Shown here piece by piece: positions 15,754-53,681 of a stretch of 64,000 nt of DNA. Position 1 is the stretch's first letter; the number at the start of each line of letters is the position of its first letter. Below the pieces are notes generated by a model. The model was not told the origin of the DNA, made no database searches, and saw only the letters and a list, made by a program, of their open reading frames with translations. The DNA is from Diaphorobacter sp. (GTDB lineage Bacteria; Pseudomonadota; Gammaproteobacteria; Burkholderiales; Burkholderiaceae_C): the NCBI RefSeq assembly GCF_050176255.1, contig NZ_JBFXIE010000008.1; one strand, 5' to 3'. The position numbers and the translations under genes are program-made.

Positions 15754-15916
15754 TGGCCCGGTGAAGCTTTCATGAGTCACGCGTGGACCGAAAACCCCGC
15801 CGCCGCGCTGAAGCCCGCCCGTTCACGGGCAAAATGGCGCGTTGGACGGCCCGGGAGGGGGCATTGCCCGTGCCGCCGTCTGCGCACCCACACCACAATC
15901 ACCAAAGGTTGACGAC

Positions 15917-17023: not shown

Positions 17024-17030
17024 ATACTAT

Positions 17031-19769
<2,739 letters not shown>

Positions 19770-22070: not shown

Positions 22071-25000
22071 CGGCAGAGGCGTCGTTCATCCTGCAAGAGC
22101 TGCACCTGTACAACTGGGGCGCTTTTGCCGGGCGCCACCAGGTGGGCGTTGATCCGGGCAACAGCGCCATCATCGGCCCCACGGGCAGCGGCAAGACCAC
22201 GCTGGTCGATGCGCTGATGACGCTGCTGTGCGCCAGCCCGCGCTACAACCTGGCCTCGACCGGCGGGCATGAAAGCGACCGCGACCTGGTCAGCTACGTG
22301 CGCGGCGCCGCCGGCCAGGGCAATGACAGCGGCGACCACATCGCCCGGCCGGGCCGCTGCACCACGGGTATTGCGGCGCGGCTGGTGCGCGCGGGTGGCA
22401 CGGGTGACGGTGGCGCAGGCACATCGGTCTGGCTGGGCGCGCTGCTGTGGTTTGACGGCAGCAGCCAGTCGGCGGGCGACATGCAAAAGCGCTGGTTCTT
22501 CGCGCAGGGCGAGGGCCACGGCCTGGACCTGTGGCTGGAAGAGCAGCACAGCGGCGGCGCGCGGGCGCTCACCCGGCTGGCCAAGGACAGCGACGGCCTG
22601 CAGATGTTCAGCAGCAAGGCGCCCTACCTGGCCCGGCTGCACAGCTTTTTTGAAGTGGGGCCCAACGCCTTCACGCTGCTCAACCGCGCGGCGGGGCTCA
22701 AACAGCTCAACAGCATTGACGAGATCTTTCGCGAGCTGGTGCTCGACGACCACTCGGCCTTTGACGCTGCGCAGCAAGTGGTGGCCGGCTTTGCCGAACT
22801 GGCCTCCATCCACGCCGACCTGGAGCTGGCCAATGCGCAATTCACGTCCCTACTGCCGCTGCGCGACCTGACCGCGCGCGAGCAGCAGCAGGCGCACCAG
22901 TTGGCGCATGTGCAGGCCCTGCAGCAGCAGCTGCCCGCGTGGTTTGCCGCGCAGGGCGTGCAGTGGTGGCGCCAGCGCGTGGCGCAGCTGCAGACGCAGA
23001 TGGCGCAGCGCAGCCAGGCCCTGCTCGCCGCGCAGGACACGGTACAGGCCGCGCGGCGCCACGAGCAAGACCTGCACGGCATCTACCTGCAGGCGGGCGG
23101 CGCCAGCATCGAGTCGCTGCGCGAGCACATCGCGCTGGCGCGCAAAGAGCTGGGGCGCACGCAAGCCAACCTGCTGCAGTACCAGCAACTGGCGCGTAAC
23201 CTGGGTCTGACGGCCAGCCCCGCGCAGGCAGGCAAGGTGACTGCGCAAGACCTGCCCGCGCACCAAGCGCAGGCGGCGGTCGCCATGCAGCAGCTGGACG
23301 CCGATCAGGCGCAGCTGCAGGCCGATGCCGAGGCGGCCATTGCCGACGAGCGCAACGCCCACAGGCGCTGGCAAGAGCTGGAGGCCGAGTACGACGCCGT
23401 GCGCCGGCGCCCCGGCTCCAACCTGCCGCTGGCGTACCAAAGCTTTCGCGCCGATCTGGCCGCGCACCTGGCCCTGCCCGAGGACGACCTGCCCTTTGCC
23501 GCCGAGCTGGTCGAGGTGCCGCTGCCTGAGCAAGGCTGGCGCGGCGCCATCGAGCGCGCCCTGGGCAGCCACCGGCTGCGCATCCTGGTGCCGCACGCGG
23601 CCCTGCACGCGGCGCTGCAATGGGTGAACCAGCGCCACAACCGGCTGCATGTGCGCCTGCTGGAGGTGACTGCTGCTGCGGCGCCCGCCACTTTTGTGGC
23701 CGACGGCTTTGCGCGCAAGCTCAACATCAAGCCCCGCCTGCCCGCGGCGCACCAGGGCGCGCTGCGCCAGTTGCTGGCAGAGCTCGATCGCCACTGCGTG
23801 CCCGACGTCGCCACGCTGGAGCGCACGCCCCACGCCATGACGATCGAGGGGCTGATGTCCAGCAAATCCGGCCACTTTGACAAGCAGGACCACAAGCGCC
23901 TGGATCAGGACTGGATGACCGGCTTTGACAACCGCGATCGGCTGGCGTATCTGCTACAACATAAAGAGCAGGCAGCGCTTGAATGGAAAGGGTTGGAGAC
24001 TAAAAAGACCCAAATCCTGCACGCCCAGCGCAGCGCGCAGGAGCAGCGCCGGCTGTGGGCCGCGCTGCAAACGCTGCAGCTGCAAGACCTGGACACGGCC
24101 GCAGCCGATGCGCAGTTGCAGCACAAAGAACAGCAACTGCAGGCGCTGCTGCACCCGCAATCCGACACCGCACAGGCCCAGCAGCGCTGGGACGCCGCGC
24201 AGGCGCACACCCGCGCAGCCGACGACCAGCTGCGCCAACTGCAAACCGCGCAGACGCAAGACGCCACCTTGCTGGATACCGCGCGCCAACGCCTGGGCGC
24301 CTTCGAGGCGCGCAGCGTCGGCGCACCGGCGTTGGATGCGGACTTTGCCGCGCAACTGGCCCGCCTGGGGCACAGGCTGAGCGCACTGGACGGCGACAAC
24401 CTCGACGCGCAAGAGCGCGACGCCGCCGCGGCCCTGCACGCCAAAAGCGCAGAGGCCGGCAAAAAGCTCGGGCATCTGCACCAGGAGATCGTGCGCCAGA
24501 TGGGCCGGGCCCGGGCTGAAGACCGCGGCGCTCTGGCCGAACACGCGCAGGAGGTAGATGCGCTGCCCCACTACCTGCAGCGCCTGCAGGTGCTGGAAGA
24601 AGAAGCCCTGCCGGCCAAGCGCCAGCGCTTTCAGCAATACCTCAACGACACCTCGCAGCAGGGCGTGGACAACCTGCTCAGCGGCATTGCCGCGCAGGTG
24701 GCAGACATCGAAGACCGCATCGCCCGGCTCAATGAAACGCTGCAACGCGTGGACTTTCAGCCCGGCCGCTACCTGCAGCTGGACCCGCGCTCGGTCGTGC
24801 ACCAAAGCCTGCAGGACCTGAGCCAGGCGCAAAACCAGCTGCGCACCGAGCGCCTGCGCGATGACGGCGGCCACAGCCACTACCGGGCGCTACGCGCCAT
24901 CGTGCAAATGCTGCAAACCCACGCCAGCAACCGCCGCAGCAAGGCCGCGCAGGCGCTGCTGGATGCGCGCTACCGGCTGCAGTTTGCGGTGCTGGTGATG

Positions 25001-25423
25001 GATCGCGCCAGCGGCCAGATGCTGGAGCGGCGCACTGGCTCGCAAGGCGGCAGCGGCGGCGAGAAGGAAATCATCGCCAGCTACGTCCTGACTGCATCGC
25101 TCAGCTACGCGCTGTGCCCCGACGGCGCCAGCCGCCCAGTGTTTGGCACCATCGTGCTGGATGAGGCTTTTTCCAAAAGCTCGCAGGCCGTGGCCGCGCG
25201 CATCATCCAGGCGCTGCGCGAGTTTGGCCTGCACGCATTGTTCGTCACGCCCAACAAGGAAGTGCGCCTGCTGCGCAACCACACGCGCAGCGCCGTCGTG
25301 GTGCACCGGCGCGGCGCGCAGGCCACGCTGGCATCGCTGCGCTGGGAAGAGATCGACGCCTTCCGCCAGAACGTGCAGAACGCGCACCGCACGCAGCCAG
25401 CGCCAAACCCGGCGCAAATATGA
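22067..25423 (+). CDS. jetC: Wadjet system SMC-like ATPase JetC
   Basis: 1118 aa. N-terminal Walker A GPTGSGKTT, long Q/A/L-rich coiled coils, C-terminal signature-like GSGGEKE and Walker B IVLDEAF. ATGA overlap with jetB. Confidence 0.85.
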   Translation: MTAEASFILQELHLYNWGAFAGRHQVGVDPGNSAIIGPTGSGKTTLVDALMTLLCASPRYNLASTGGHESDRDLVSYVRGAAGQGNDSGDHIARPGRCTTGIAARLVRAGGTGDGGAGTSVWLGALLWFDGSSQSAGDMQKRWFFAQGEGHGLDLWLEEQHSGGARALTRLAKDSDGLQMFSSKAPYLARLHSFFEVGPNAFTLLNRAAGLKQLNSIDEIFRELVLDDHSAFDAAQQVVAGFAELASIHADLELANAQFTSLLPLRDLTAREQQQAHQLAHVQALQQQLPAWFAAQGVQWWRQRVAQLQTQMAQRSQALLAAQDTVQAARRHEQDLHGIYLQAGGASIESLREHIALARKELGRTQANLLQYQQLARNLGLTASPAQAGKVTAQDLPAHQAQAAVAMQQLDADQAQLQADAEAAIADERNAHRRWQELEAEYDAVRRRPGSNLPLAYQSFRADLAAHLALPEDDLPFAAELVEVPLPEQGWRGAIERALGSHRLRILVPHAALHAALQWVNQRHNRLHVRLLEVTAAAAPATFVADGFARKLNIKPRLPAAHQGALRQLLAELDRHCVPDVATLERTPHAMTIEGLMSSKSGHFDKQDHKRLDQDWMTGFDNRDRLAYLLQHKEQAALEWKGLETKKTQILHAQRSAQEQRRLWAALQTLQLQDLDTAAADAQLQHKEQQLQALLHPQSDTAQAQQRWDAAQAHTRAADDQLRQLQTAQTQDATLLDTARQRLGAFEARSVGAPALDADFAAQLARLGHRLSALDGDNLDAQERDAAAALHAKSAEAGKKLGHLHQEIVRQMGRARAEDRGALAEHAQEVDALPHYLQRLQVLEEEALPAKRQRFQQYLNDTSQQGVDNLLSGIAAQVADIEDRIARLNETLQRVDFQPGRYLQLDPRSVVHQSLQDLSQAQNQLRTERLRDDGGHSHYRALRAIVQMLQTHASNRRSKAAQALLDARYRLQFAVLVMDRASGQMLERRTGSQGGSGGEKEIIASYVLTASLSYALCPDGASRPVFGTIVLDEAFSKSSQAVAARIIQALREFGLHALFVTPNKEVRLLRNHTRSAVVVHRRGAQATLASLRWEEIDAFRQNVQNAHRTQPAPNPAQI
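23955..24012 (+). repeat. AT-rich repeat-like patch, copy I (partial, inside jetC, sense)
   Basis: CAGGCAGCGCTTGAATGGAAAGGGTTGGAGACTAAAAAGACCC matches the AGCGCTTG..AAGGG(C/T)T core. Local AT-rich codons within a GC3-rich gene. Confidence 0.45.
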
Positions 25424-26595
25424 AGTCGCCCCAGGCATTGGCGGCCCGGCTGGCCCAGCAATGGCACAGCGCCGACTGGCGCGAGCGCCAGCTGCTGTGC
25501 GGCGCGGCGGCCTGGCCGCTGGTGCTGCCCATCGGCGCGCCCGGCGCGGCGGACTTTCTGGGCGATGCCAGCGTGCTGCGCGGCCATCTGCAGCATTGGC
25601 GCGACGTGCAGCAGCAGGGCCTGGGCAGCGTGCAGTGGCAAGAGCGGCGCTACCGCGGCGCCAGCGCCGCCATCGCCGTGCCCACGCACTGGCGGCTGGC
25701 CAGGCCGTCCGAATGCATTGCGGCCATCAGCCACTTCAAGGCGCCGGGCCATGCGCAGATCGCGGCCGACTACGCGCGGCTCAGCGCCATCGTCGCGGCA
25801 GTGCAGCGCAGCGGCTTTCAGCGCCTGCTGGTGCGCCGCCTGGTGCAGTGGCGCGACACGCCTGCCGAAGCCGTCATCGCCGCCGCCCGCATCGCCCTGC
25901 AACTGGAGCCCGGCTGCGCCAACGGCCGGCCGCTGCGCGCACTGGCCGTGCAAGGCAACGACAGCAAATTCTTCGAGCGCCACGCCAGCCTGCTGACGGC
26001 GCTGCTGGACGAGCGCTTTGACGGCGAAGCCAGCCGCCAGGGGCTGGCGGGCTTTTTGGACGCGCTGCCCGAGGGTGACCACTGGCTGCTGCTCGCCCCG
26101 CTGGCCCCCGGCCTGCTGCCCTTCGCGCGCCAGCGCGTGCCCGCTGCTGAGCTGCTGGCCACGCCCCTGCCGGCCAGCCACATCCTGCTGGTGGAAAACG
26201 AACGCAGCCTGCACCAGCTGCCCCAGCCGCTGGCAGGCACCATCGCCGTGCTGGGCGCCGGGCTCAACCTGGGCTGGCTGGCCGCGCCTTGGCTGCAGCA
26301 GCGGCGCGTGGCCTACTGGGGCGACATCGACACCTGGGGCCTGCACATGCTGGCCACGGCACGCGCGCATCTGCCGCATCTGCAGGCACTGCTGATGGAC
26401 CGCGCCACCCTCGACGCCCACGCCGCCCAGGCCGTGGCCGAGCCGGTGCACGCGCCTGCTTCGGAGGGCAGCGCGCTGCGCGCCGACGAGGCCGCGCTGG
26501 ATGCGCACCTGCGCCGCCTGGACCAGGGCCGGCTGGAGCAGGAGTTCATCGCCCCCGCGGCCGTGGCCCACGCGGTGCGCGGCTGGCGCGGCTGA
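25420..26595 (+). CDS. jetD: Wadjet system nuclease JetD (Toprim/topoisomerase VI-like C-terminal domain)
   Basis: 391 aa. Toprim-like Glu in LLVENERS and DxD in YWGDIDTWG. ATGA overlap with jetC. Confidence 0.8.
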   Translation: MKSPQALAARLAQQWHSADWRERQLLCGAAAWPLVLPIGAPGAADFLGDASVLRGHLQHWRDVQQQGLGSVQWQERRYRGASAAIAVPTHWRLARPSECIAAISHFKAPGHAQIAADYARLSAIVAAVQRSGFQRLLVRRLVQWRDTPAEAVIAAARIALQLEPGCANGRPLRALAVQGNDSKFFERHASLLTALLDERFDGEASRQGLAGFLDALPEGDHWLLLAPLAPGLLPFARQRVPAAELLATPLPASHILLVENERSLHQLPQPLAGTIAVLGAGLNLGWLAAPWLQQRRVAYWGDIDTWGLHMLATARAHLPHLQALLMDRATLDAHAAQAVAEPVHAPASEGSALRADEAALDAHLRRLDQGRLEQEFIAPAAVAHAVRGWRG

Positions 26596-41180: not shown

Positions 41181-44100
41181 GCTTTTGCCTTCGCCCGCCA
41201 TTTCTGGCGGGCGAATCAGCCGGAGCCGCCCTGGTGCCCCTGGCAGTGGTGTTTCAATCCGCGCCCGCCATTTCTGGCGGGCGAATTTCAGCACTTCGCC
41301 GTTCTGCCTGTGACTGCATCACTGTTTCAATCCGCGCCCGCCATTTCTGGCGGGCGAATTACTTCCGTCCCCTTCAGCGGATCGGTTTCCGCGACGTTTC
41401 AATCCGCGCCCGCCATTTCTGGCGGGCGAATTGACCGAGCCGCGTCTGCCTCTGGAAACCTTGCAGGCCGTTTCAATCCGCGCCCGCCATTTCTGGCGGG
41501 CGAATTCAGGTGCGGAAGATCGAGTCCACTACCGACATGCCGTTTCAATCCGCGCCCGCCATTTCTGGCGGGCGAATTGGCTTGGATTGTGGTGCTTTGC
41601 GCGATGCTCATAAGTTTCAATCCGCGCCCGCCATTTCTGGCGGGCGAATTGGTGCATTTGGCAAAGTCTTGTCGCCTTCGCGCGGTTTCAATCCACGCCC
41701 GCCATTTCTGGCGGGCGAATTCCCCTACTGCGCTCGGCTGCTCGGGTTCCCACAGGTTTCAATCCGCGCCCGCCATTTCTGGCGGGCGAATTTCGCCTCC
41801 AAAGCCTTGATATGGCCCGGTGTCATGGTTTCAATCCGCGCCCGCCATTTCTGGCGGGCGAATTGCCGCGAAGTCGTGGACATGCCCGGCAAGATCGTTG
41901 TTTCAATCCGCGCCCGCCATTTCTGGCGGGCGAATTGGTTTCCACGCGGTAGCCGCGCACGTAGGCGGTCGTTTCAATCCGCGCCCGCCATTTCTGGCGG
42001 GCGAATTGCAAGTCCTTGCCGTAGCCGCCGATCAGGTCGCCGTTTCAATCCGCGCCCGCCATTTCTGGCGGGCGAATTGTCGAAGTCCCCGACGCGCTGG
42101 TCAAGTCGTTCAAGGTTTCAATCCGCGCCCGCCATTTCTGGCGGGCGAATTTCCCACGCGGTCGTCGCTCTGCCCGGGCCGAAGTGGTTTCAATCCGCGC
42201 CCGCCATTTCTGGCGGGCGAATTGCGGCACCGGCCACAGATGCCGTGTCGGCACGGAAGTTTCAATCCGCGCCCGCCATTTCTGGCGGGCGAATTAACAC
42301 TGTGACCGTTTCCGGCGCTTCCCAGACTGGTTTCAATCCGCGCCCGCCATTTCTGGCGGGCGAATTCGTATGCCACCAGCGACATTTTTGTGTCGTAGGT
42401 CGTTTCAATCCGCGCCCGCCATTTCTGGCGGGCGAATTTCCAGCGTGCCGGGGAAGGCTTCGATGCCGCCCCGGTTTCAATCCGCGCCCGCCATTTCTGG
42501 CGGGCGAATTCATCAACGTGCGCGTGATGACCGGCGGCGACTTCGTGTTTCAATCCGCGCCCGCCATTTCTGGCGGGCGAATTAATTGCAGCCCACAGCA
42601 GCCCATGATCGTTGATGTTTCAATCCGCGCCCGCCATTTCTGGCGGGCGAATTTTGCGACGGAGCGCGGCGCCGTGGCTATCGGCGCGTTTCAATCCGCG
42701 CCCGCCATTTCTGGCGGGCGAATTGCGGCTGGCCCTGCGCCTCGTAGTAATCCAGCACCCGTTTCAATCCGCGCCCGCCATTTCTGGCGGGCGAATTGCC
42801 CAGGCGGGGCCGCCAGGGGCAAGTGGCGGCTTGTTTCAATCCGCGCCCGCCATTTCTGGCGGGCGAATTCGCGCTATTTGCCGCGCCACTCTCGCCAAAT
42901 GGCGAGTTTCAATCCGCGCCCGCCATTTCTGGCGGGCGAATTCGACTACAGGGACGATGCCGTTTTGGCGGTCAGGGTTTCAATCCGCGCCCGCCATTTC
43001 TGGCGGGCGAATTGACGCTTGAAAGCACAGGCGCCGAGGTGCTGATTGTTTCAATCCGCGCCCGCCATTTCTGGCGGGCGAATTAGCGCGCAAACCCGAT
43101 GCTTCGCCGACCACGATAGTTTCAATCCGCGCCCGCCATTTCTGGCGGGCGAATTTGTGCTGATTAACGGCCTGCGCAAGCATGCCACCGTTTCAATCCG
43201 CGCCCGCCATTTCTGGCGGGCGAATTTCACAGCCGCGATGCTTGCCGCGTGCGATGAGCCGTTTCAATCCGCGCCCGCCATTTCTGGCGGGCGAATTTGC
43301 CGCGAATCAGCGCGCAACTGCTGCTGCAACGAGTTTCAATCCGCGCCCGCCATTTCTGGCGGGCGAATTTTGCGGTTTGGCGCCAGAGACGGGTCGGGCC
43401 ATGGTTTCAATCCGCGCCCGCCATTTCTGGCGGGCGAATTGGCATCGTCGTTGCTGAGTATTACTGGATCGACCTGTTTCAATCCGCGCCCGCCATTTCT
43501 GGCGGGCGAATTTATGCTCGGTTTTCAACAGTTTTATTGGGGCACGACGTTTCAATCCGCGCCCGCCATTTCTGGCGGGCGAATTTGCGCGGCGTGCCCG
43601 GGCCTTCACAGGTTCCCGGCGGTTTCAATCCGCGCCCGCCATTTCTGGCGGGCGAATTTCCATCCTTGTGTGGGTTGGCCACCAGTGTGGGCTGTTTCAA
43701 TCCGCGCCCGCCATTTCTGGCGGGCGAATTTGCGGCACGGGTTGCGGCGTTGTCGTTCGACAGGCTGTTTCAATCCGCGCCCGCCATTTCTGGCGGGCGA
43801 ATTTCGGCGATCTGCTCGCGCAATGACTGGTTGTAGTCGTTTCAATCCGCGCCCGCCATTTCTGGCGGGCGAATTTGCAGGCGCTTGCGGTCTTCTTCGT
43901 AGGTGCGCTTGTTTCAATCCGCGCCCGCCATTTCTGGCGGGCGAATTTGATGCCTGACGGCCCGCCGCGCTTGAGTTCGCAGTTTCAATCCGCGCCCGCC
44001 ATTTCTGGCGGGCGAATTTGGGCGTCTTCCGCAACCTGCTGGCCGGCGTGATCGTTTCAATCCGCGCCCGCCATTTCTGGCGGGCGAATTTGCCGGCGTA

Positions 44101-44881
44101 GTTGACCGTGCCCATGGTGCCGATGTTTCAATCCGCGCCCGCCATTTCTGGCGGGCGAATTTCGGCATCGCCGTGTGTCTTTCGCAGCCCGCCAAGGTTT
44201 CAATCCGCGCCCGCCATTTCTGGCGGGCGAATTTTTTCGATGCGCTTGGCTATGTCTGCGCGCGTGGCGTTTCAATCCGCGCCCGCCATTTCTGGCGGGC
44301 GAATTTTTCCAACATGGCGCGGATGTCACGATGGACATGAGTTTCAATCCGCGCCCGCCATTTCTGGCGGGCGAATTTAAGCGAGCGCGCAGGTAGGCGT
44401 ATTTGTTCTGGTAGTTTCAATCCGCGCCCGCCATTTCTGGCGGGCGAATTTGTCCGGCATTGCGGCAAGCATCGCCACGGCGCTGTTTCAATCCGCGCCC
44501 GCCATTTCTGGCGGGCGAATTTTCGGGCAGTACATGCAAGAGTTCGCCGGCTTGTCCGTTTCAATCCGCGCCCGCCATTTCTGGCGGGCGAATTTGATGG
44601 CACGGTCATCATCACCAGCCCTGACCTGGTTTCAATCCGCGCCCGCCATTTCTGGCGGGCGAATTTGCGATGCGCGGGCGCTGCTCCAGCTGGTTTTGCT
44701 GTTTCAATCCGCGCCCGCCATTTCTGGCGGGCGAATTTACCGCCGCACCCTGCCGCGTGCCGACGTGCGGCTGTTTCAATCCGCGCCCGCCATTTCTGGC
44801 GGGCGAATTTGGCGCACGCTGGCCGGGTTGCCGCGATCCCACTTGTTTCAATCCGCGCCCGCCATTTCTGGCGGGCGAATT
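41181..44881 (-). CRISPR. Type I-C CRISPR array: 51 full repeats + 1 degenerate trailer repeat, about 51 spacers (33-37 nt)
   Basis: Repeat (plus strand) GTTTCAATCCGCGCCCGCCATTTCTGGCGGGCGAATT. Its reverse complement ends ...GGATTGAAAC, as type I-C repeats do, with stem CGCCCGCC/GGCGGGCG. Period is 70-74 nt, with first full repeat at 41251 and last at 44845 (counted by eye). Degenerate repeat at the cas-distal end; one variant repeat (G to A) near 41685. Confidence 0.97.
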
Positions 44882-45096: not shown

Positions 45097-45387
45097 TCAC
45101 AGCACCAGCGGGCCGTCAAAATCCGTCGCTTTGAACGTGCCGTGCTCGATCACCTCGAAGCCGCGCGTGCCGGGCATCCGGTAGAGCCTAAGGCAGTCTG
45201 CAGACGGGTCTATTTCTGCCAGCAAACGGCGTTCCAGCGCTTCGTACTGGGCCATGTCCAGCTGGCATTCGAACACCGATCTTTGTACCCGCTGCCCGGT
45301 GCTTTCGCACACCCGCGCCACGCGGCGCAAGCGGCGCCGGCCCGCTTTGGTTTCGGTGTTGACGTCGTAGCAAACCAGCACCAGCAT
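45097..45387 (-). CDS. cas2: CRISPR-associated endoribonuclease Cas2
   Basis: 96 aa, MLVLVCYDV... ferredoxin-like Cas2 N-terminus. Confidence 0.93.
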
Positions 45388-45396
45388 GGCTGGCCC

Positions 45397-46425
45397 CTAC
45401 TTGGCCAAAAAGGGCACATAAGGCGCCCCGTCTTCGCGCACGGCGCGCGCCAGCAGACGGGCTTGCACCAATGGCACCAAACCCAGCGGCACGGATTGCG
45501 CCAGCAGTGGGTGGTTGATTTCGTCCTTCTTGCGCTCTTGGTGGGCTACCACCACGGCTTTGCGGGCATCTGGCTGCAAGACAACCGCGCCGCCTTCGCG
45601 CAGCACAAAGTCGTGTGTGCCCAACTGGCCTCTGTTGATCAGCGTCAGTGCCAGCCGGTCTGCCCAGGGGCGAAACTCTTCCATCAAGTCCAGGGCCAGG
45701 GCAGCGCGGCCCGGGCGCAAGGCGTGCAAGAAGCCCACTTGGGGATCAAGCCCGGCTGCCTCTAGGGCGCTGCGGCAATCGTTCATCCACATGGCATACA
45801 AAAATGACAGCAGGGCGTTGAGACGGTCGCGCGGCGGGCGGCGTGTGCGCCCGTCCATGGCAAAGGCGGCGCGCTGGTCGGGGCGCACCAGTAGGCCCAG
45901 GCCGCTGAAGTATTGGCGTGCGGCTTCGCCTTCCACACCGCGCAGGCTATCTAGGTTGGTGGTGCCGGGCAGGGCGCGCAGGCTGGCGGCCAGGTCATCT
46001 GCCAGGCGGGCCAAGGCTTTGGCTTCGTCTTCTGACTTGGCTTCTCGGGCGCCGCGCTGCAAAACTTGCCGGGTGTTTTTGATCTTGCCGGCCACGCTGG
46101 ATCGGGCCATGTCCAGCGTGAATGCCGGATCGGCCACGCGTTGAAACTGCGCTTGGCGCAGCAGCACATTACCGCTGACAGCCCCTTCCAGCCGCGCTTT
46201 GAAGCGGCCGTTGTCGTCCAGCAGCACCAGCGCAATACCCCGGTCGGCCAGCAGGTGCATCAAGGGTGCAGACAGGTGGATATGGCCAAAACACACCACG
46301 GCGCTCAGGTGGTGCAGAGGCACGCGCAGCCGGGTTTCGTGATTGACCTCGACACGAAGGGTTTCGTTGTCCAGCCGCAGGTAGGTTTCGGGCGTTGTGA
46401 CGTAGAGGGTGTTGAGCAGTTGCAT
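45397..46425 (-). CDS. cas1: CRISPR-associated integrase Cas1 (type I-C)
   Basis: 342 aa, MQLLNTLYVTTPETYLRLDNETL... typical Cas1c. Adjacent to cas4 and cas2. Confidence 0.95.
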   Translation of the reverse strand: MQLLNTLYVTTPETYLRLDNETLRVEVNHETRLRVPLHHLSAVVCFGHIHLSAPLMHLLADRGIALVLLDDNGRFKARLEGAVSGNVLLRQAQFQRVADPAFTLDMARSSVAGKIKNTRQVLQRGAREAKSEDEAKALARLADDLAASLRALPGTTNLDSLRGVEGEAARQYFSGLGLLVRPDQRAAFAMDGRTRRPPRDRLNALLSFLYAMWMNDCRSALEAAGLDPQVGFLHALRPGRAALALDLMEEFRPWADRLALTLINRGQLGTHDFVLREGGAVVLQPDARKAVVVAHQERKKDEINHPLLAQSVPLGLVPLVQARLLARAVREDGAPYVPFLAK

Positions 46426-46449: not shown

Positions 46450-47106
46450 TCACGCGTCGGGGTCGAACAAGGTGTGCCGGGCCGATTCCAGGTTTGCTTG
46501 TGTGACCTTGGGCTGGCAGCGCTCTTGCAGCGAGCAGCCTTTGCAGCGCTGTTGTGCTTGCGGGCCAGCCAGAGGCGACGGCAGTTGCCTGCTGGCCAGC
46601 ATCTGCCGTACGGCTTGTGCCGTACGTGCCACATCGTCCCGTAATTGCGCCGTGATGGGCACGGTGCGGCGGCGCCTGGAACTGGCGTAATACAGCGCGC
46701 CCTCCGGCACGGGTTTGCCGGTCATGGTCTCCAGGCACAGAGCTTGCGCGGCCAGCTGAAGGTCGTCACAGGCGGCAATGTCGGCGGCCTTGTGGCGGCT
46801 GCCGTGTTTGTATTCGACGGGGTAGGGCACGCCTCCGGCCAGAAACTCCACCACGTCGGCCTTGCCTATCAGACCCAGCGTGTCGTGCCACAGCGGCAGG
46901 GCGCGCTCCACGCGCACGCCTTTGGCCGTTTCGACGCCAGGCAGGTCGGCCTTGGCATGCACTGCCTGGCCGCGCAGGGTGTGGAGGTTGTCGTCAAACA
47001 CCTGCTCCAGGTGGATCAGGCCACACTGGCGCGGGCAGTATTGCCAGTGCTGCAAGGCCGACAGGGCAATGGGATCGGGTTCTGGCGCGGGGGTGGCGGT
47101 GGGCAT
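46450..47106 (-). CDS. cas4: CRISPR-associated exonuclease Cas4
   Basis: RecB-like nuclease motifs, N-terminal Cys (YCPRQC) plus C-terminal CKGCSLQERC cluster. Confidence 0.92.
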   Translation of the reverse strand: MPTATPAPEPDPIALSALQHWQYCPRQCGLIHLEQVFDDNLHTLRGQAVHAKADLPGVETAKGVRVERALPLWHDTLGLIGKADVVEFLAGGVPYPVEYKHGSRHKAADIAACDDLQLAAQALCLETMTGKPVPEGALYYASSRRRRTVPITAQLRDDVARTAQAVRQMLASRQLPSPLAGPQAQQRCKGCSLQERCQPKVTQANLESARHTLFDPDA

Positions 47107-47111
47107 GGGCG

Positions 47112-47990
47112 CTACGGTTTTTTGGGCGCCTTCCTGGCTTTGGCTGGCGGTATGGCCTTGATCGCTTCGGCTGCCTTGGGCGTGGCCGGTGGCAGGTAGT
47201 TGTCACTGGTCACTACCGATTTACCGGTTTGGCCCTCCAGCTGCGTACGTGCCTGATGGGCGATGCGGCCACCGGTTTGGGCTGCGGCCTTGTTTTCTGC
47301 CATGCCGGTGGCATCCACACTTTCTGCAATCTGGCGAGTCGATAGCTCGGCCAGAGCGGTAAAAATCAGCTCAGCCTCGCTCATGTGGTCGCGCAGGTTG
47401 TGGCTTTTCAGGCCCTTTTTTGCTTTGTGCTGCGCCACGCTCAGGCCCGACCATTCTTGGTGAATGATGTTGGTCAGGATGGCGAACTCGCTGCCCGCTT
47501 TGATGTCGTGCCCGCTCCAGTAGTCGGTGAGCTTATTGCGGGTTTCCTGTCCAGTCATGCGCTGCTGGATCCACTTGTCGCTGCGGCCATGCTGCTGCCA
47601 GGTTTGGCGCGCGCGGTCCAGCGCCTGGGCTGGGTCGGCCATTTCTTGCATGCGTTCGTAGCCCACCTTGGCCAGCCACAGTTTGATGGGTTCTGCCTTG
47701 GGGCTGGGGATGGATTGCACGATGCGAAGCAGGCCTTGGGCGGTGGCGCAATCGGTCAGGCGCTGCTTGCCATCCGCAGCGGTCAATTTCAACCGTCGAC
47801 AAAATGTCGACAGTTCAGCGCCGTCTTCCGCCTTGACGCGCTGCTTCATCTTGAACCAGTAGTCGCGGGCGTTTTCGCTGTCGGTCAGCACCTGCACGAT
47901 GTCAATGACCGAAAACCACCAGGTTTCGGTGGCCTCGTCGTACACGCGGCGGATGCCCTGGCTGTCGAATTGAGTGGGCAGGGTTTTCAT
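47112..47990 (-). CDS. Bro-N / DinD-like (DNA-damage-inducible protein D family) protein embedded in the cas operon
   Basis: 292 aa. N-terminal FDSQGIRRVYDEATETWWFSVIDIVQVL (Bro-N-like). Central GYERMQE...WIQQRMTGQETRNKLTDYW...KKGLKSHNLRDHMSEAELIF resembles E. coli DinD (KGLKKNQKILDHMGSTELAANLF). K/P/A-rich tail. Gaps of 11 nt to cas7 and 5 nt to cas4. Confidence 0.65.
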   Translation of the reverse strand: MKTLPTQFDSQGIRRVYDEATETWWFSVIDIVQVLTDSENARDYWFKMKQRVKAEDGAELSTFCRRLKLTAADGKQRLTDCATAQGLLRIVQSIPSPKAEPIKLWLAKVGYERMQEMADPAQALDRARQTWQQHGRSDKWIQQRMTGQETRNKLTDYWSGHDIKAGSEFAILTNIIHQEWSGLSVAQHKAKKGLKSHNLRDHMSEAELIFTALAELSTRQIAESVDATGMAENKAAAQTGGRIAHQARTQLEGQTGKSVVTSDNYLPPATPKAAEAIKAIPPAKARKAPKKP

Positions 47991-48001
47991 GTGCCCCCGG
48001 G

Positions 48002-49000
48002 TCAGAAAAGCCGGGTCAAGGTCACGCCCGCTGCGGGCTGCAGCGATTGCCCCACAGCCAGACTTTGCCCATCAAAGGCAACCGCATACGCATCAAAACT
48101 GCGCGCCACGGCACCGGCTTCTTTGGGCTGAACTTGCAGGCGCTCAAACAAGGCGTGCGCCGGGGCGTTACCCAGTTCGCTGTCGTGTTGGAACACGTAC
48201 AGCCCGCGCGTGGACATTTCGCCGCGTGCCGCGGAGCGGTCGTGCTCGAACATCTGGCCCAGCGCTTGCCACAGCAACTCCAAGTCGTCCTGCCCAAAGC
48301 CGGTTTGCTTGGCCAGAAAGGACGAGACAAAGCCATGCGCCACATACACGCCATAGGGCACGGTGTGCTTGCGGCCCATGGTGCGGTTGTCACCCTGCTG
48401 CTTTTCTGCCTCAGCCTCGGTGGCCACCGCCATGCGGGTGATGGAGTGCTCCAGCGCCACGATGGGTTCGACCGAACGCGCAAACGTCAGCTGCACTGGG
48501 CCACGCACCTGGCCACAGTTCACTCCAGTGGACATGACGGCGCCAAAGGTGCGCACATCAAAAAAGTTCTGGCACATCCACTGGCGCGCCAGGGCCACCT
48601 CGTCGGCGCTGCCTTTGCGCTTGTCTTTGCCGGGCTTTTTCTTTTTGGTGTCAGCTGCTTCGTTTTCTGTAGCTGCTTGCGCTTGCTCCTCGGGCGTTTC
48701 AGCCAGATTTAATGCGGAATAGGCACGCTGGTTTTGGTGGTTCAGGATGGCTTTTTCGCGCACGTAAATCTCAAAACGCTTTTCGCCATCCACCGGGGTG
48801 CGCTCGTCTTGCTCTTTCACCAGCCCGACAAAGTTGCGCACTTTGCGCTTGAGCGACACATCGGTGACCAGGCCATGGCCGGATTCGGCATCCAGGCGCG
48901 GCATATTGCCCGCGTCGGGGTCACCGTTGGGATTGCCGTCTTTGACATCAAAAATCAGCACAAAGTCATAGCGGTGGGCGAGGGGTTGGGCGGGGCTCAT
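48002..49000 (-). CDS. cas7: Type I-C Cascade backbone subunit Cas7c (Csd2)
   Basis: [25 protein letters not shown] hallmark of Csd2/Cas7c. Confidence 0.95.
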
Positions 49001-49383
49001 GCGGTTTCTCCTTCAGGGGTGCCGTGGTCGGTGTCTTGGGATTTGCGAGTGAAAAAGTCCTGGCGCTGGTGGTAGTAGCCCAGCGCGAAACGGCCCTGGT
49101 CGGGCAACGGCAGATGTTTGGGAAAGTCGTCGACAGGGCCCAGCACTTCGCCCAGCAGCTTTTCAAACACTGTCACACGCCCGGGCATCAGCTTCTTGAG
49201 GTGTGCGTTCTTCAGGCGCAGCAAGGTGGTGAACACCGCCACCGGTGTGCTGGAAGCGGCGCCGTAATAGCGGTCGCGGATGGTGGCGTTCAGCCCAGGG
49301 CTGGCTTCTTCCTGGATTTTTTCCAGCACCGCAAAGAGCCGCCCCAGGCGGTAGGCCGGGTGCGTGTTGCTGAGGTCGAGCAT
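48997..49383 (-). CDS. cas11c: Candidate internally translated small subunit Cas11c (in-frame 3' part of cas8c)
   Basis: In-frame ATG at 49383 preceded by GAAGGAG and 8 nt (CAGAGAAGGAGTTTTTGCCATG). It gives a 128-aa helical product [24 protein letters not shown]..., consistent with the published internal Cas11 of type I-C. Confidence 0.55.
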
Positions 49384-50748
49384 GGGCAAAAACTCCTTCT
49401 CTGTACTTTGGCGAAAGCGGATTTGGCGGTTGAGGCAGGCCTTGATGGCTGCGGCGCGCGGGTAATTGATGTTTTGCTCGGCTCGGCAACGCCCCACGGC
49501 AGCGTTGAGCCACAGGCTGGGGTACGGCGCATCCGGCCCTGCCAGCAGGGCATCCACGATGGCGCCGCCCAGGTTGGGCGGAATGTTGTCGGCCTTGTTT
49601 TGCAGCGCCACGGCGGTCAGCAGGCGGAACAGCGAGGGGTACTGCGGGTCATGCGGCCCCCGCGCAAGCGACAGGTCTTCAAAGTGCTGCGCGATGCGCT
49701 GACCCAGTTCGCACAGGGTGATGCAGTGGTAAAAGCGGATGCTGATGCGCGCAGCATTGGGCGCGAGGCCCAGCACGTGGTAGCGCAGGTTTTCATCTGA
49801 TTCGCCCCACTGCCCGCTGTGCACGGCATCCAGCAGCGCGCGCACGGCGGTGGTACCGCCGTCGGGGTTGTCCTGGAAGATGTCGCCAAAGATGGTCTCG
49901 AACGGGTCTTGCCGCTCAGCCCAGAACACCGTGGAGGCGTCGCCCACCTGCATGCGCTGGGGCGAATCCTTGCGCAGCAGGTGGTTCAGCGCGGTGGTGT
50001 AAGCGAAGGCGGCAGCGCGGCTGACGGGGGCGTTTTCGCCCTGGCGCTCAGTCTTGCCGTAGGACTCAAAAGCGCGCGCGTTGAACGAGACGATGTTGGC
50101 ACCTGAGGTCTGCGCGCCCCACACCCCTTTGATCGACGCATGCAGGCGTTCGACCGGCGCCCGCTCGCCCGTCACCAGGCACATGGCCTGCGGCGCATCG
50201 TCAGCGCCAGCGGTGCTGAGCGCCGCTTGCACCACGGCGGGGCGCTGGCACACCAGATCCAGGTCGCCGTGCAGGCGGAAGCTCATCACGGCGTTACCCT
50301 CCAGCGCCTCGTTCCAGGCGGGCTGGCGCTCCAGTTGTGCCACATCCCGCCGGTGCAGAAACCGCAACACAGCCTGGATGCCTGCATCCTCCCTGACCAC
50401 TTCTGGCAGCGCCTCGATACGCGCACGAAACGCCGCATGCTGCTCGGCCACGCGCTCGGGCTTGCCCTTGGTGTCCACGCCCAGCACATATTCCAGTGTG
50501 TCCCACAGCAGGTTGGCCGCCACCCCCGAGGTTTTCTTGACGCCCTGGGGCACGCGAAAGACGCGCGCCACCTTCTTTTTGCCCTGCAGCTCGCGGGTGT
50601 CGCGCAGTTGCAGCAGTTCGCCGTCGGTACTGATCTCCAGGATGAACGGAATCTCCTTCTGCTCTAGTCCGAAGGCGGGCAGGTGCTGTGCCGGGTCGGG
50701 GTCATCGCATTTGCGGCGGTAGTAGTCGCTCAGGGCTTGCAAGATCAT
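48997..50748 (-). CDS. cas8c: Type I-C large subunit Cas8c (Csd1)
   Basis: 583 aa, [13 protein letters not shown]... typical Csd1 N-terminus. 4-nt overlaps with cas5 and cas7. Confidence 0.93.
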
Positions 50749-51401
50749 CCGCGTGCCTCCTCGAAGGCTGGCACCTGCACCACGCCACGCTCCATACGCG
50801 CATTGAAAAAGCGCGGCTGCGGGTCGGCGGGGTTCGAAAAATCCAGGTCGTGCAGCATCCAGCCCAGCTCGCGCGTGTCCTCAATGGGTGGGGCTGGGGG
50901 CGTGTCGGCGGTGACCAAGCAGAAGTCGGCAGCGAACTCGCGGCAGCCCAGGTAGGGCTGGTTCACACACTGGCCTTTGCGGGTGCGGCGGGTGAACATC
51001 TCGGTGTATTTCATCAAGGGCTCGGTGCAGCCGGGCGCCAGCGACAGATCGGCGTGGATGCGGTAGGCCACGTCGCGCAAAAAGTAGCCCGCACGCTGCT
51101 GGCGATCGTCTTCGATATACAGGCCCAGCGTGCCGCTGCCCGCCGCCATCGTCTGCTGCACGTTGCGCGTTGACACCACAGCGCTGACCTCATTGCGCCG
51201 CAGGTTGATAAAGCGGATGGGCTTGAGTACTTCGATACGCTGCACTTGCCAGCGAATGGCGGGCTTCCACAAAATGGACTCGAATACGGCGCGGGCGGCA
51301 GACGGCGTCATCACATCGTAGGACACGCGTTCCACCTTCATCTCCGGGCGGGTAAAGCAGGCAAAGGGGCCTGCAACTTCGAGGCAAAAGTGGGACGACA
51401 T
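50745..51401 (-). CDS. cas5: Type I-C pre-crRNA endoribonuclease Cas5c (Cas5d)
   Basis: CLEVAGPFACFTRPEMKVERVSYDVMTPSAARAVFESI typical Cas5d. Confidence 0.95.
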   Translation of the reverse strand: MSSHFCLEVAGPFACFTRPEMKVERVSYDVMTPSAARAVFESILWKPAIRWQVQRIEVLKPIRFINLRRNEVSAVVSTRNVQQTMAAGSGTLGLYIEDDRQQRAGYFLRDVAYRIHADLSLAPGCTEPLMKYTEMFTRRTRKGQCVNQPYLGCREFAADFCLVTADTPPAPPIEDTRELGWMLHDLDFSNPADPQPRFFNARMERGVVQVPAFEEARG

Positions 51402-51410
51402 GGGGCTCCT

Positions 51411-53681
51411 TCACAAAACAAAACCGCCGGGTTGGTAAAGGTCGGCATCGCCTGCAAGGCCCAGAATGCTGCTGTATAGATTATCAGCATCTGCCAGCAC
51501 GTACAGGCCCGGCACGGGCAGCAAGAGATCGCCTTGCTGCAGCATCTTGTCAGCCTTCCATTTCGGGATACTTACGGTGTAGCGCTGCAATTTGCGCGTC
51601 AGCCAGCGCTGCGGGCCTTCTGCCGCCAGGATATTGAGCAGTTTGTCGATCGTGTTGCGCTGTGGTGCGTAGCGCACCACTACGGGGACACTGTCTTGAT
51701 CGTCAATCAGTCGGAAGGCTTGTGCGGCGGTCCGAAACTGCACGGCCAGCGTGCGTGGCTCCACCTTGAGCAGGCCAACGATGCCGTGCTTGTCCAAATC
51801 CACCGAGTGGTAGAACTCGGTGAAGTAGTGAGTAAAAAGGCCACGCGCCAACGGGTTGTGCGCCTGCCCCTGCAGGGTGGCGATGCACGCATCGGCGCCT
51901 TTACGCAAATGTCCGAGCGGGGGTTTCTCGGGCGGCACAAACACCACCACGCGCCCCATGCCGGGCAGCCGCCCTTCACGGTTGCAGCGACCCGCAGCCT
52001 GGACGATGGAGTCAAGCCCTGCCAGCGCGCGGTACACCACGGGAAAGTCGATGTCCACGCCCGCCTCTACCAGTTGGGTGCTGACCACGCGCAATGGCCG
52101 CAGGTCGCGCCCTTCGCGTTTGGCTTGTAGGCGTTGTTTGATTTCGGCAATGACATCCTTGCGATGCGCACCGCACATCAGAGCCGACAGGTGCAAGGTG
52201 CCCTCGGGCATCAGGCGCTGCAACTCGCGCGCGGCTTTGCGGGTGTTGACAATGGCCAGCACGCAATCCTCGGCGCCGAGCTGCGCGGCCAGGTCGGCCC
52301 AAGGGGTGGGTGTTGTCCAGTCGGCAGGAAGCTCTACCTGCACGCGCTGGAGGGCGTCGAACAGGGCATCGGGGTGATCGATGATTTCGCGTACGTTTTC
52401 CAGTCCGCGCAGGTTTTTATGGGCATCAAAGTACGTGGTGCTGGCCAGCGCTGGCTGGGTGGCGGTGCACAGCACCACCGTCACACCGTAGTGCGCCACC
52501 AGCAGCCTGAGCACATCCAGAATCGGTTGAAGAAAGTCGGGCGGTAGCTGCTGCGCCTCGTCCAGCACGATGACGCTGCCCACCAGGTTGTGCAGCTTGC
52601 GACAGCGTGAAGTTTTGGCGGCAAACAGTGATTCGAACAACTGCACGTTGGTGGTGACGACGAGGGGCGCATCCCAGTTTTCGCAGGCCAGGCGGCTGCG
52701 GGCGGTTTCGTCTTTCTCGGCGGCATCAAACTGACTGTGGTGCTCCACCAGCACCTCGTCGCCCAAGCCATGGAACACGTTGCGGAACACGTCCGCCGTC
52801 TGCTCGATGATGCTGATGTAGGGGATGGCGTAGATGATGCGGCGCTGGCCGTGGGCCTGCGCATGCTCCAGCGCAAACGCCAGGCTGGAGAGCGTTTTGC
52901 CGCCGCCCGTGGGTACGGTGAGCGAGAAAAACCCCTTGGGCAACGCAGCCTGGGCGCGACACTGGCGCAAGACATCCGCACGCAAGCGGTTGACCAGCGT
53001 GTTGGCGGCGGGCAGCGCCGCCATGTGGGCGTCAAATGCAGCGCGCATTTGCCCCAGCGTGGCAAAGCCTGTGCGGTGCGCGGGCTTGCCCGCATCAAAG
53101 TGCGCTTCGGTGTCCAGAAAGTCGGCATCCACAAGGCAAGAAAACAGCATGCGCACCCAGAGGGCAAAGCCTTCTGCGCCGCCCGGAATCACTCGTAAAT
53201 CAGGAGTGAAGCTACCTGGGCTCAATACCTCAGCGGGCGGGTTGGCTGCCAGCGTTTCTTTGAGCTCTTGCGCGCTGTCAGGGTGACGCAGCCGTAGCTG
53301 TAGGCCTTGGTGCCAGTCGTCCAGGCCTACGTGGTGCCCTGCAATCAGGTAGGCCAGTACGTGCGCGGCCAACTTGCCTTGGGCGCCATGGGTTGTTCCC
53401 AGTTGCTGCAAAGCCCACAGCGCGCCAGCAGCGGAATGGGTTTTTTCGCGCCCCCCCACTTTGCCTTCGATGTGCGCGTTTTCGCCATCGGCCAGACGCA
53501 CATAGCGTTGAAACCCGGGTCGGTATTTACCCAGGTCGTGCCACAGGCCAGCCAGATAGGCCCAGCGCAGCGTGGGCTCTGTGGCGTCAAAGGGCTGGGA
53601 AAAATCGGCCGCTAGCGCAGCCACCTGGTTCAGATGTTCAGCCAGCAAATGCCCGCCCGAATGGGCCCAGGGTGTTGACAT
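51411..53681 (-). CDS. cas3: CRISPR-associated helicase/nuclease Cas3 (HD + SF2 helicase)
   Basis: HD motif LAGLWHDLGK, Walker A VPTGGGKT, DEAQ box VIVLDEAQ. Confidence 0.95.
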   Translation of the reverse strand: MSTPWAHSGGHLLAEHLNQVAALAADFSQPFDATEPTLRWAYLAGLWHDLGKYRPGFQRYVRLADGENAHIEGKVGGREKTHSAAGALWALQQLGTTHGAQGKLAAHVLAYLIAGHHVGLDDWHQGLQLRLRHPDSAQELKETLAANPPAEVLSPGSFTPDLRVIPGGAEGFALWVRMLFSCLVDADFLDTEAHFDAGKPAHRTGFATLGQMRAAFDAHMAALPAANTLVNRLRADVLRQCRAQAALPKGFFSLTVPTGGGKTLSSLAFALEHAQAHGQRRIIYAIPYISIIEQTADVFRNVFHGLGDEVLVEHHSQFDAAEKDETARSRLACENWDAPLVVTTNVQLFESLFAAKTSRCRKLHNLVGSVIVLDEAQQLPPDFLQPILDVLRLLVAHYGVTVVLCTATQPALASTTYFDAHKNLRGLENVREIIDHPDALFDALQRVQVELPADWTTPTPWADLAAQLGAEDCVLAIVNTRKAARELQRLMPEGTLHLSALMCGAHRKDVIAEIKQRLQAKREGRDLRPLRVVSTQLVEAGVDIDFPVVYRALAGLDSIVQAAGRCNREGRLPGMGRVVVFVPPEKPPLGHLRKGADACIATLQGQAHNPLARGLFTHYFTEFYHSVDLDKHGIVGLLKVEPRTLAVQFRTAAQAFRLIDDQDSVPVVVRYAPQRNTIDKLLNILAAEGPQRWLTRKLQRYTVSIPKWKADKMLQQGDLLLPVPGLYVLADADNLYSSILGLAGDADLYQPGGFVL

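Follow-up and report, generated by a model that had tools for sequence, protein, structure and literature searches.

A Bro-N gene inside a type I-C operon

The window analysed here is a stretch of 64,000 nucleotides (nt) from a Diaphorobacter sp. genome (contig NZ_JBFXIE010000008.1, RefSeq assembly GCF_050176255.1), and on its minus strand there is a type I-C CRISPR-Cas locus with its full set of genes, the order of which, as confirmed by Pfam, is cas3-cas5-cas8c/csd1-cas7-X-cas4-cas1-cas2, followed by a CRISPR array. The gene of interest, here called X, is a 292-amino-acid (aa) open reading frame (ORF) located between cas7 and cas4 (47112-47990, minus strand; ATG start, TAG stop), whose product is a DinD/DdrC-like Bro-N protein of the PADLOC PDC-S13 family. 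The initial annotation of this stretch had described such an ORF on the strand of the cas genes, with gaps of only 11 and 5 nt, a G-rich Shine-Dalgarno sequence and a codon usage resembling that of the host, and all these features were found again. On the minus strand, the cas7-X junction (47991-48001) reads TGA-CCCGGGGGCAC-ATG, its 11 nt being G-rich and Shine-Dalgarno-like, while the 5-nt X-cas4 junction (47107-47111) reads TAG-CGCCC-ATG. The GC content at third codon positions (GC3) is 0.75 for X and 0.72-0.81 for the cas genes, and the relative synonymous codon usage of X correlates with that of the other cas genes with an r of 0.94. No promoter or terminator signal near X and its junctions exceeded the shuffle background. 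Because the genes are so tightly spaced, X is likely to be co-transcribed with the cas genes, as had been proposed. Furthermore, X is a real gene and not a chance ORF of GC-rich DNA, since it matches Bro-N, PDC-S13 and PHROG 15286, has thousands of homologues, and shows a ratio of nonsynonymous to synonymous substitution rates (dN/dS) of 0.14-0.18.

Domain architecture and conserved residues

The protein begins with a Bro-N domain (aa 15-108; 47667-47948, minus strand), a beta/alpha module of the DNA-binding type, which was predicted in the initial annotation and is supported by both the AlphaFold2 model and Pfam PF02498 (38.0 bits against a gathering threshold of 25.6; E 2.6e-9; profile positions 3-92 of 96). 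A helical C-terminal domain follows (about aa 113-265; 47196-47654, minus strand), with homologous counterparts at the C terminus of DinD and of DdrC according to profile, Foldseek and DinD alignment, and the protein ends in a basic tail rich in Pro, Ala and Lys (aa 266-292; 47115-47195, minus strand), which is variable or missing among homologues. In the AlphaFold2 model, built from a 121-sequence alignment with a mean predicted local distance difference test score (pLDDT) of 79.7, strands and helices occupy aa 6-92 (pLDDT 84-90), long helices span aa 99-255, and aa 266-292 are predicted to be disordered (pLDDT <50). Nearly the entire protein (aa 6-273) matches the PADLOC PDC-S13 model PDLC04920 (E 4.4e-121; profile positions 8-274 of 286), and PHROG 15286, a family whose function is not known, covers all of it (E 6e-91).

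The family to which X belongs is large, with 9005 clusters at 50% identity when the threshold is set at E<=1e-3, and 655 at E<=1e-30. It is conserved over its full length; R144 is invariant, and near-invariant positions of X include R14, D30, Y44, R89, P95-S96, E100, W105, K192, R200-D201, E207, E215 and R248. Several of these residues compose the conserved C-terminal motif K192-G-L-K195 ... N-L-R200-D201 ... E207. A search for nuclease, NTPase or other catalytic motifs and Pfam matches in X returned none, and no KilAC or ANT domain was matched by Pfam in its C-terminal part. X shares the N-terminal Bro-N fold of phage Bro, KilA-N and anti-repressor proteins but, unlike phage anti-repressors, does not carry a KilAC or ANT domain and belongs to a family that, in its full-length form, is almost absent from phage records.

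Ten long representatives of the family were inspected for fused domains, and EAD11, HTH_3, LMWPc, DUF4316 and an acyltransferase fragment were seen. In one of them (P0254) the EAD11 effector-associated domain is fused at the N terminus, which suggests that the X-family module can act as an effector in NTPase-based conflict systems, and in another (P0137) an HTH_3 domain is fused at the C terminus.

Homology to DinD and to Deinococcus DdrC

The sequence of E. coli K-12 DinD was taken from NC_000913 and compared to X. DinD carries Bro-N at aa 10-105 (Pfam), and its aa 122-250 match the same PDC-S13 model as X (E 2e-16); by BLASTP, aa 113-208 of X align with aa 114-203 of DinD at 27% identity (E 4e-4). 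Like DinD, X therefore combines Bro-N with a helical C-terminal domain, has the C-terminal motif KGLK...RD...EL and belongs to the same PADLOC family. Unlike DinD, which is a solo SOS gene, X resides in a cas operon, is only about 21% identical to DinD overall and has no NCBIfam match. With these last two features X is not a DinD orthologue; it represents a distant paralogous branch of the superfamily that has kept the two-domain layout of DinD. The resemblance of the C-terminal part to DinD claimed in the initial annotation thus holds for the superfamily and not for orthology, while profile searches and structure prediction upheld the Bro-N/DinD assignment in general. The SOS association suggested at the same time did not find support for X: assuming an E. 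coli-like motif for this host, no exact LexA box (CTGT-N8-ACAG) occurs between 40 and 58 kb of the window, and the four sites with one mismatch found in this interval do not lie upstream of the operon or of X. E. coli DinD removes or inhibits post-synaptic RecA filaments (Uranga 2011, as cited in PMC4849656). This property is known for E. coli DinD alone.

A second relative emerged from structural comparisons. When a profile of 48 diverse members of the X family was searched against all PDB sequences, DdrC of Deinococcus radiodurans was the sole match (7UDI, E 3.1e-5; 8U0G and 7QVB, E 1.6e-4), with profile positions 139-255 aligned to residues 114-224 of the chains. Similarly, a Foldseek search of the PDB using the AlphaFold2 model of X returned six DdrC chains as the only matches at E<=1e-3 (E 3e-6 to 2.5e-4; probability 1.0), with 250-260 aligned columns, TM-scores of 0.3-0.45 and a root-mean-square deviation of 10-14 A; these TM-scores are low because the two domains are oriented differently. 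In the alignment of hidden Markov models, W116, R120, R167 and K170 of DdrC correspond to W140, R144, K192 and K195 of X, respectively, R173-D174 to R200-D201, and E180 to E207, and all the aligned X residues fall on the most conserved columns of the family, those of R144, K192, K195, R200-D201 and E207 being invariant or near-invariant. DdrC recognises nicks in one strand as well as double-strand ends, as a dimer it bridges a pair of breaks, and it makes DNA compact or circular, with K170 predicted to intrude into the duplex (PMC11347143). Residues R167, K170 and R173-D174 of its DNA-contacting region align with the most conserved motif of X and DinD. DdrC, by both profile and predicted fold, hence appears to be detectably homologous to the widespread DinD/PDC-S13 family, E. 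coli DinD included, and it is the only solved structure that X significantly matches by either approach. The two proteins differ, as X is only 13-19% identical to DdrC, has another domain orientation and an N-terminal domain that is not detectably similar by sequence, and DdrC, which is damage-induced, has no link to defence systems.

DdrC was reported to be without identifiable homologues outside Deinococcus, and the paper in question does not mention DinD or Bro-N (PMC11347143). In the literature searched we found nothing that links DdrC with DinD, and relative to it the homology of the DinD family to DdrC appears to be new. This finding contradicts the view of DdrC as a protein without relatives outside its genus, and E. 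coli DinD in turn would gain from it a structural and functional framework.

Conservation of X in Comamonadaceae I-C loci

One genome per species was scanned with the Cas1 protein of the window, which yielded 80 loci with a Cas1 81-93% identical to it, all from Comamonadaceae or Burkholderiales (Rhodoferax, Polaromonas, Acidovorax, Comamonas, Giesbergeria, Variovorax, Simplicispira, Alicycliphilus, Hylemonella and Ca. Aalborgicola); 73 of these loci had enough upstream DNA to be informative. A full-length X was found immediately upstream of cas4 in 56 of the 73, and a partial X in four, including L011, with an internal deletion of about 425 bp, and L064, with a 119-aa N-terminal fragment. Overall, X is kept in about 80% of the loci, in four effector classes and down to a Cas1 identity of 81%. 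The flanks of X showed no insertion scar, transposase or repeat, and the alignment with L006 and L012 was continuous through the junctions; in four of the loci that lack X (L053, L063, L071 and L078) cas7 directly abuts cas4. A recent neutral insertion of X was thus rejected, given its conservation, the selection acting on it and the absence of insertion scars.

The effector genes of these loci are far more diverse than the genes that accompany X. At least four effector classes, only about 25-50% identical, share one adaptation block and one repeat family (...GGATTGAAAC); besides the arrangement seen in the window, these include loci with the variant order WYL-cas5-cas8-cas7-cas3-X-cas4-cas1-cas2 (L001-L004, L016 and L021), class B (L009, L027, L082 and L090) and class D (L042 and L099). 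In loci where identity to the window falls to about 24-33% for cas3, cas5, cas8 and cas7, among them one with the WYL variant order, the X-cas4-cas1-cas2 block retains 78-93% protein identity; the adaptation and the interference half are thus shuffled as modules. Because the adaptation block is conserved while the effectors differ, X moves with the adaptation module. Protein distances agree with this view, as X correlates with Cas4 (Mantel r=0.41) and Cas1 (r=0.33; p<=0.001) and weakly with Cas7 (0.17), while the correlation between Cas4 and Cas1 is 0.74, values which indicate that these genes are inherited together, with some recombination.

Selection on X is purifying and comparable to that on Cas4, judging from whole-gene dN/dS values of 0.14-0.18 for X, 0.12-0.14 for Cas4 and 0.07 for Cas1. 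Within X, the ratio is 0.21 for Bro-N, 0.10 for the C-terminal domain and 0.88, which is nearly neutral, for the tail (aa 266-292). Such selection, together with presence in about 80% of the loci and with codon usage, fits the long residence and co-transcription that had been postulated for this gene.

Other peculiarities were seen in a few of the surveyed loci. L046 (8276-11005) contains a 334-aa X-like ORF (54% identity, with Bro-N) followed by a 545-aa ORF that starts as Cas5 and continues as Cas1, without a cas4, and is probably a rearranged or degenerate locus. Between cas7 and X of L052 (7942-8388) there is a 148-aa ORF with no Pfam match. Several class-A loci also have a gap of about 400 bp between cas3 and cas5 (L017:4520-4935, L019:4602-5019 and L056:4566-4977, and similarly in L051, L052, L063, L067 and L078), with no convincing ORF and low GC3, which may represent a non-coding element or a decayed insert.

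X outside Comamonadaceae I-C loci

A metagenome scan with X returned 80 loci with an X 67-85% identical, 35 of which had flanks too short to be classified. Among the 45 determinable contexts, 13 were cas loci, at least 15 were type I restriction operons and 17 were neither, so that the association is not largely exclusive to CRISPR-cas loci, and members of the wider family are solo genes. In the restriction context, X relatives (67-75% identical) are typically found in the order hsdM-hsdS-X-hsdR on one strand, with the neighbours supported by Pfam (Methylase_S, N6_Mtase, ResIII and EcoEI_R_C). Three of the 13 cas loci (L122, L136 and L139) belong to a distant I-C system (Cas1 45% and Cas4 38% identical), in which X follows cas4 and precedes cas1, and in a neighbour-joining tree these three sequences form their own small clade amid X proteins that are not linked to cas genes.

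Solo copies also occur inside the large cas-linked clade (L005, L094, L098, L100 and L126). In L098 (8001-8855), L100 (8001-8867) and L126 (8001-8867), X stands alone at the exact sites where relatives have a whole CRISPR-Cas locus: L126 and L100 share their left flank (yjdM and a DinG-like helicase) with the cas-bearing L006, and L098 shares its own (DUF1275 and metG) with the cas-bearing L001. At these sites the cas genes and the array seem to have disappeared from either side of X, which itself was retained intact. Solo X genes are in fact intact and under purifying selection, with a dN/dS of 0.06-0.09 against the nearest cas-linked relative. Among distant Bacteroidota solo members, one is located between polA and uvrB (L186), one near a uvrD-like gene (L176) and one near recQ (L177), and many family members, E. 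coli dinD included, occupy housekeeping or DNA-repair neighbourhoods and not defence islands.

Phage association was another element of the initial annotation, and it did not withstand the search of phage and plasmid collections. The full-length, two-domain family was found in 4 of 50,697 phage records and in 25 of 72,556 plasmids, in all cases at <=50% identity, and no phage genes were found near X in the window; the family is mostly chromosomal and rarely on phages. For this reason the idea of a domesticated phage gene is weak, and it was rejected.

Recruitment into type I-B operons of Campylobacterota

In the RefSeq annotation of plasmid pACLO of Arcobacter cloacae (NZ_CP053834.1), a Bro-N protein is encoded in a type I-B operon with the order cas7-cas5b-cas3'-ATPase-cas4-[Bro-N protein]-cas1b-cas2. 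Following a search with this protein, four contexts were looked up and in all four the homologue was located inside a type I-B operon. The order is cas6-cas8b-cas7-cas5-cas3-X-cas4-cas1-cas2 in Sulfurospirillum multivorans (CP042966.1), likewise cas3-X-cas4-cas1-cas2 in the shorter contig stretches of Sulfurimonas and Aliarcobacter, and cas4-X-cas1 in the Arcobacter cloacae group. In the I-B loci where X lies between cas3 and cas4, the stop of X overlaps the start of cas4 (ATGA), which suggests translational coupling of the two genes. The Arcobacter-type I-B operons also have a second guest between cas3' and cas4, an AAA_14/DUF4143 ATPase of about 420 aa (L171:4218-5477; L180:5227-6495).

Between the window and Sulfurospirillum, Cas1 is 23% and Cas2 25% identical and Cas4 is barely alignable, while X is 47% identical. 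Based on the neighbour-joining tree and the identity matrix, the nearest kin of the cas-linked X of Campylobacterota is a solo Bacteroidota gene (71-74%), and that of the cas-linked X of Comamonadaceae is an X embedded in hsd operons (71-72%). Because Cas1 is so much more divergent than X, and because each cas-linked clade is nearest to an X without cas genes, these are independent recruitments in two phyla to one kind of position, beside cas4 where the interference genes meet the adaptation genes. Placement inside cas operons is thus recurrent, and includes the 56 of 73 Comamonadaceae loci, the second I-C clade and the I-B operons of four Campylobacterota genera. Three independent landings beside cas4 are suggestive and not decisive, however, since a rough estimate puts p at about 0.03-0.13, according to the number of junctions taken as permissive.

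Possible role of X and alternative explanations

On the basis of these results and by analogy with DinD and DdrC, we tentatively propose that X, a two-domain member of the DinD/DdrC superfamily, is not an enzyme but a DNA-binding protein that would act on broken DNA in the service of type I nuclease-translocase defences, a proposal to which, taken as a whole, we would grant a little less than an even chance. X would be made from the cas operon transcript together with Cas4, Cas1 and Cas2, and would bind DNA discontinuities or recombination intermediates such as nicks, ends and RecA-coated duplex, like those on which its two relatives act. Breaks of this kind would be the products of type I nuclease-translocases, namely Cas3 in CRISPR and HsdR in restriction systems, and by holding or capping them X would restrain the repair or processing of DNA under attack that depends on RecA/RecBCD, thus supporting immunity. 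In cas operons, X may also keep Cas3-derived fragments available to Cas4-Cas1-Cas2. X would be expressed from the same operon as the system that it assists, but it would be independent of Cas proteins; members of the same subfamily work from type I restriction operons and as solo genes.

Several of our findings weigh against this proposal. With regard to its relatives, the low global identity to DinD is accompanied by the lack of any NCBIfam match at E<=1, so that no curated orthologue name is available, and by the lack of a LexA box; the match to DdrC is a distant one in both identity and TM-score, and a profile of the N-terminal domain alone, searched against the PDB sequences, did not return DdrC or anything significant, and sequence-level homology therefore rests on the C-terminal domain. 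Moreover, PDC-S13 is only a candidate for a role in defence. With regard to the operon, X is missing from 13 of the 73 informative loci and has decayed in two more (L011 and L064), and arrays are no shorter where X is absent, with 13-67 repeats in complete arrays of loci without X and 2-87 in those with X, a comparison of low power in that only four complete X-less arrays were available. Lastly, small toxin-antitoxin pairs often occupy the cas7|cas4, X|cas4 and cas4|cas1 junctions of sister loci as guests, and include HicA with a HicB-like protein, RelE with an Xre antitoxin, ParE with Unstab_antitox, HigB with HigA, and DUF5615 (L014, L015, L018, L021, L024, L029, L033, L036, L041, L042, L050, L051, L055, L065, L066, L068, L069, L073, L077, L079, L083, L086 and L087). 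The junctions inside these operons thus act as hot spots for guest genes, and the position of X could reflect permissive insertion sites and not function. X does use the same junctions as the toxin-antitoxin guests, but unlike them it is a single gene without a partner, is present in about 80% of the loci and not sporadically, follows the adaptation module through effector swaps, and recurs in another phylum.

X might instead be a dedicated adaptation accessory that works physically with Cas4-Cas1-Cas2, for example recognising ends or nicks and handing fragments to Cas4 for trimming dependent on the protospacer adjacent motif, or masking breaks of the host chromosome from the sampling of self spacers. 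Every X embedded in a cas operon is in fact at a cas4 junction (cas7|X|cas4, cas3|X|cas4 or cas4|X|cas1), travels with adaptation and not effector genes, and has distances that track Cas4 and Cas1 better than Cas7; the overlap of the X stop with the cas4 start in I-B, the existence of at least three independent recruitments, and the ability of its homologue DdrC to bind ends and nicks all speak for such a role. We nevertheless consider it rather unlikely, given that equally close relatives reside in type I restriction operons or alone, where they are still under selection after cas loss, that array size is independent of X, and that no Cas4-X fusion was present among the 10 long family representatives. 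The same cas4 junctions, in addition, host toxin-antitoxin guests, and with two to four permissive junctions per operon the three landings beside cas4 do not make a statistically compelling case. We hold similar doubts about a broader formulation of this idea, in which DinD/DdrC-like Bro-N proteins would be a so far unrecognised, convergently recruited fourth component of Cas4-containing I-B and I-C adaptation modules, linking the nicks and ends that they sense, whether due to Cas3 or to damage of the host chromosome, to the capture of prespacers by Cas4-Cas1-Cas2, or else shielding host breaks from self-acquisition, with DdrC as a branch of the DinD superfamily as its corollary.

The opposite possibility is that X has no mechanistic link to Cas or Hsd proteins and is an autonomous single-gene defence, embedded in these operons for co-regulation or co-transfer. 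This would be in line with what has been proposed for PDC-S13, which is one of 145 untested candidates for phage defence, in this case a single-gene one, in the preprint by Payne et al. (10.1101/2024.01.29.577857), where such candidates were predicted from their embedding in Hma, BREX, DISARM and type I restriction systems by a guilt-by-embedding rationale, 96.7% of embedded genes sharing the orientation of the host system. X matches the PDC-S13 model along its full length and has relatives of about 70% identity between hsdS and hsdR, the setting that defines these candidates, in addition to being embedded in cas operons; the EAD11 fusion to a conflict-system adaptor domain in one family member and the retention of solo X after cas loss also agree with autonomy. 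Unlike PDC-S13 as defined, X is hosted by a I-C or I-B CRISPR adaptation module, and its embedding is lineage-wide and not sporadic. An independent defence gene seems to us unlikely in view of the lack of a detectable enzymatic or toxic effector domain and of the many members found in housekeeping or DNA-repair neighbourhoods, dinD of E. coli among them, and because both hosts of X are type I translocase-nucleases, which hints at a common substrate.

Two further explanations are considerably harder to reconcile with the data. Bro-N and KilA-N modules are known in phage regulators and anti-repressors, a fold search of BFVD with X returned only generic Bro-N/KilA-N phage proteins, PHROG 2657, annotated as a transcriptional regulator, weakly matches aa 122-210 of X (E 1e-4), and one relative is fused to HTH_3, so that X could be pictured as a transcriptional regulator or an anti-repressor adjusting how strongly cas or hsd genes are expressed, perhaps upon infection. 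X, however, sits in mid-operon without intergenic DNA of its own, proteins 70-85% identical in unrelated operons and at solo sites would need different operators, the variant I-C loci already possess an upstream WYL regulator, and the best structural relative of X binds lesions and is not a repressor, all of which makes regulation very unlikely. That X is instead a neutral or selfish hitchhiker, for example the remnant of a mobile element kept by linkage in a permissive junction, is an explanation we regard as highly improbable: the junctions do collect other guests, and X was indeed lost or degraded in some lineages (the 13 loci without it, L011 and L064), but its dN/dS is similar to that of Cas4, it persists in about 80% of loci through Cas1 divergence to 81% and through four effector classes, it was recruited independently in another phylum and kept where cas genes were deleted, it is not flanked by scars, transposase or repeats, and it is rare on phages and plasmids.

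With respect to the literature, it was already known that the X family is catalogued as the defence candidate PDC-S13, which is to be set beside the remark of the initial annotation that it knew of no described role for such a gene in I-C systems; our searches on PDC-S13, on Bro-N with cas4 and on DinD with CRISPR returned nothing relevant. The text of the Payne et al. preprint never mentions CRISPR (10.1101/2024.01.29.577857), its supplements gave no match to PDC-S13, DinD or Bro-N, and the X family is not mentioned in the text of the Shmakov 2018 preprint or in the Cas4 phylogenomics paper. Relative to the literature searched, the lineage-wide embedding of X in I-C adaptation modules and its co-travel with them appear to be new, as does the convergent recruitment in type I-B operons of another phylum. 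How type I systems choose fragments and deliver them to spacer acquisition, and how they avoid their own broken DNA, is only partly understood, and a relative of DdrC and DinD beside cas4 in two subtypes and two phyla represents a concrete and testable candidate link. X may be an unrecognised helper of CRISPR immunity and, even if it proves to be Cas-independent, the guilt-by-embedding idea would extend to CRISPR adaptation modules. Genetics may be feasible in Sulfurospirillum multivorans, a cultivated organism whose genome is complete (CP042966.1).

The host locus and its surroundings

The locus that hosts X has all the components of a type I-C system according to Pfam, namely seven cas genes without a cas6, together with an I-C repeat array. 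On the minus strand, the interference genes are cas3, encoding a 756-aa protein with HD and helicase domains (51411-53681; Cas3_HD, DEAD and Cas3-like_C_2), cas5d (50745-51401; 218 aa, Cas_Cas5d), cas8c/csd1 (48997-50748; 583 aa, Cas_Csd1, E 8e-180) and cas7 (48002-49000; 332 aa, Cas_Cas7, E 2.6e-104). Since cas5 overlaps cas8 and cas8 overlaps cas7 in the window, few junctions of the operon can take a guest gene. Beyond X, the adaptation genes are cas4 (46450-47106; 218 aa, Cas_Cas4 and PDDEXK_1), cas1 (45397-46425; 342 aa, Cas_Cas1, E 1.6e-98) and cas2 (45097-45387; 96 aa, CRISPR_Cas2). The array, defined by Tandem Repeats Finder and by repeat count, covers about 41192-44881 on the same strand and consists of 51 repeats of the I-C type (...TCGCCCGCCAGAAATGGCGGGCGCGGATTGAAAC), which end in ATTGAAAC.

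A second defence system is present elsewhere in the window. At 19783-26595, on the plus strand, there is a Wadjet system composed of JetA (DUF3375), JetB (DUF4194), JetC (an SbcC-like ATPase) and JetD, at a distance of about 15 kb from the CRISPR array. It directly follows ORFs of the size of dnaA, dnaN and gyrB (about 14332-19769), which were identified solely from their size and order, and given this arrangement and the proximity of the array, the window is probably both origin-proximal and rich in defence genes.

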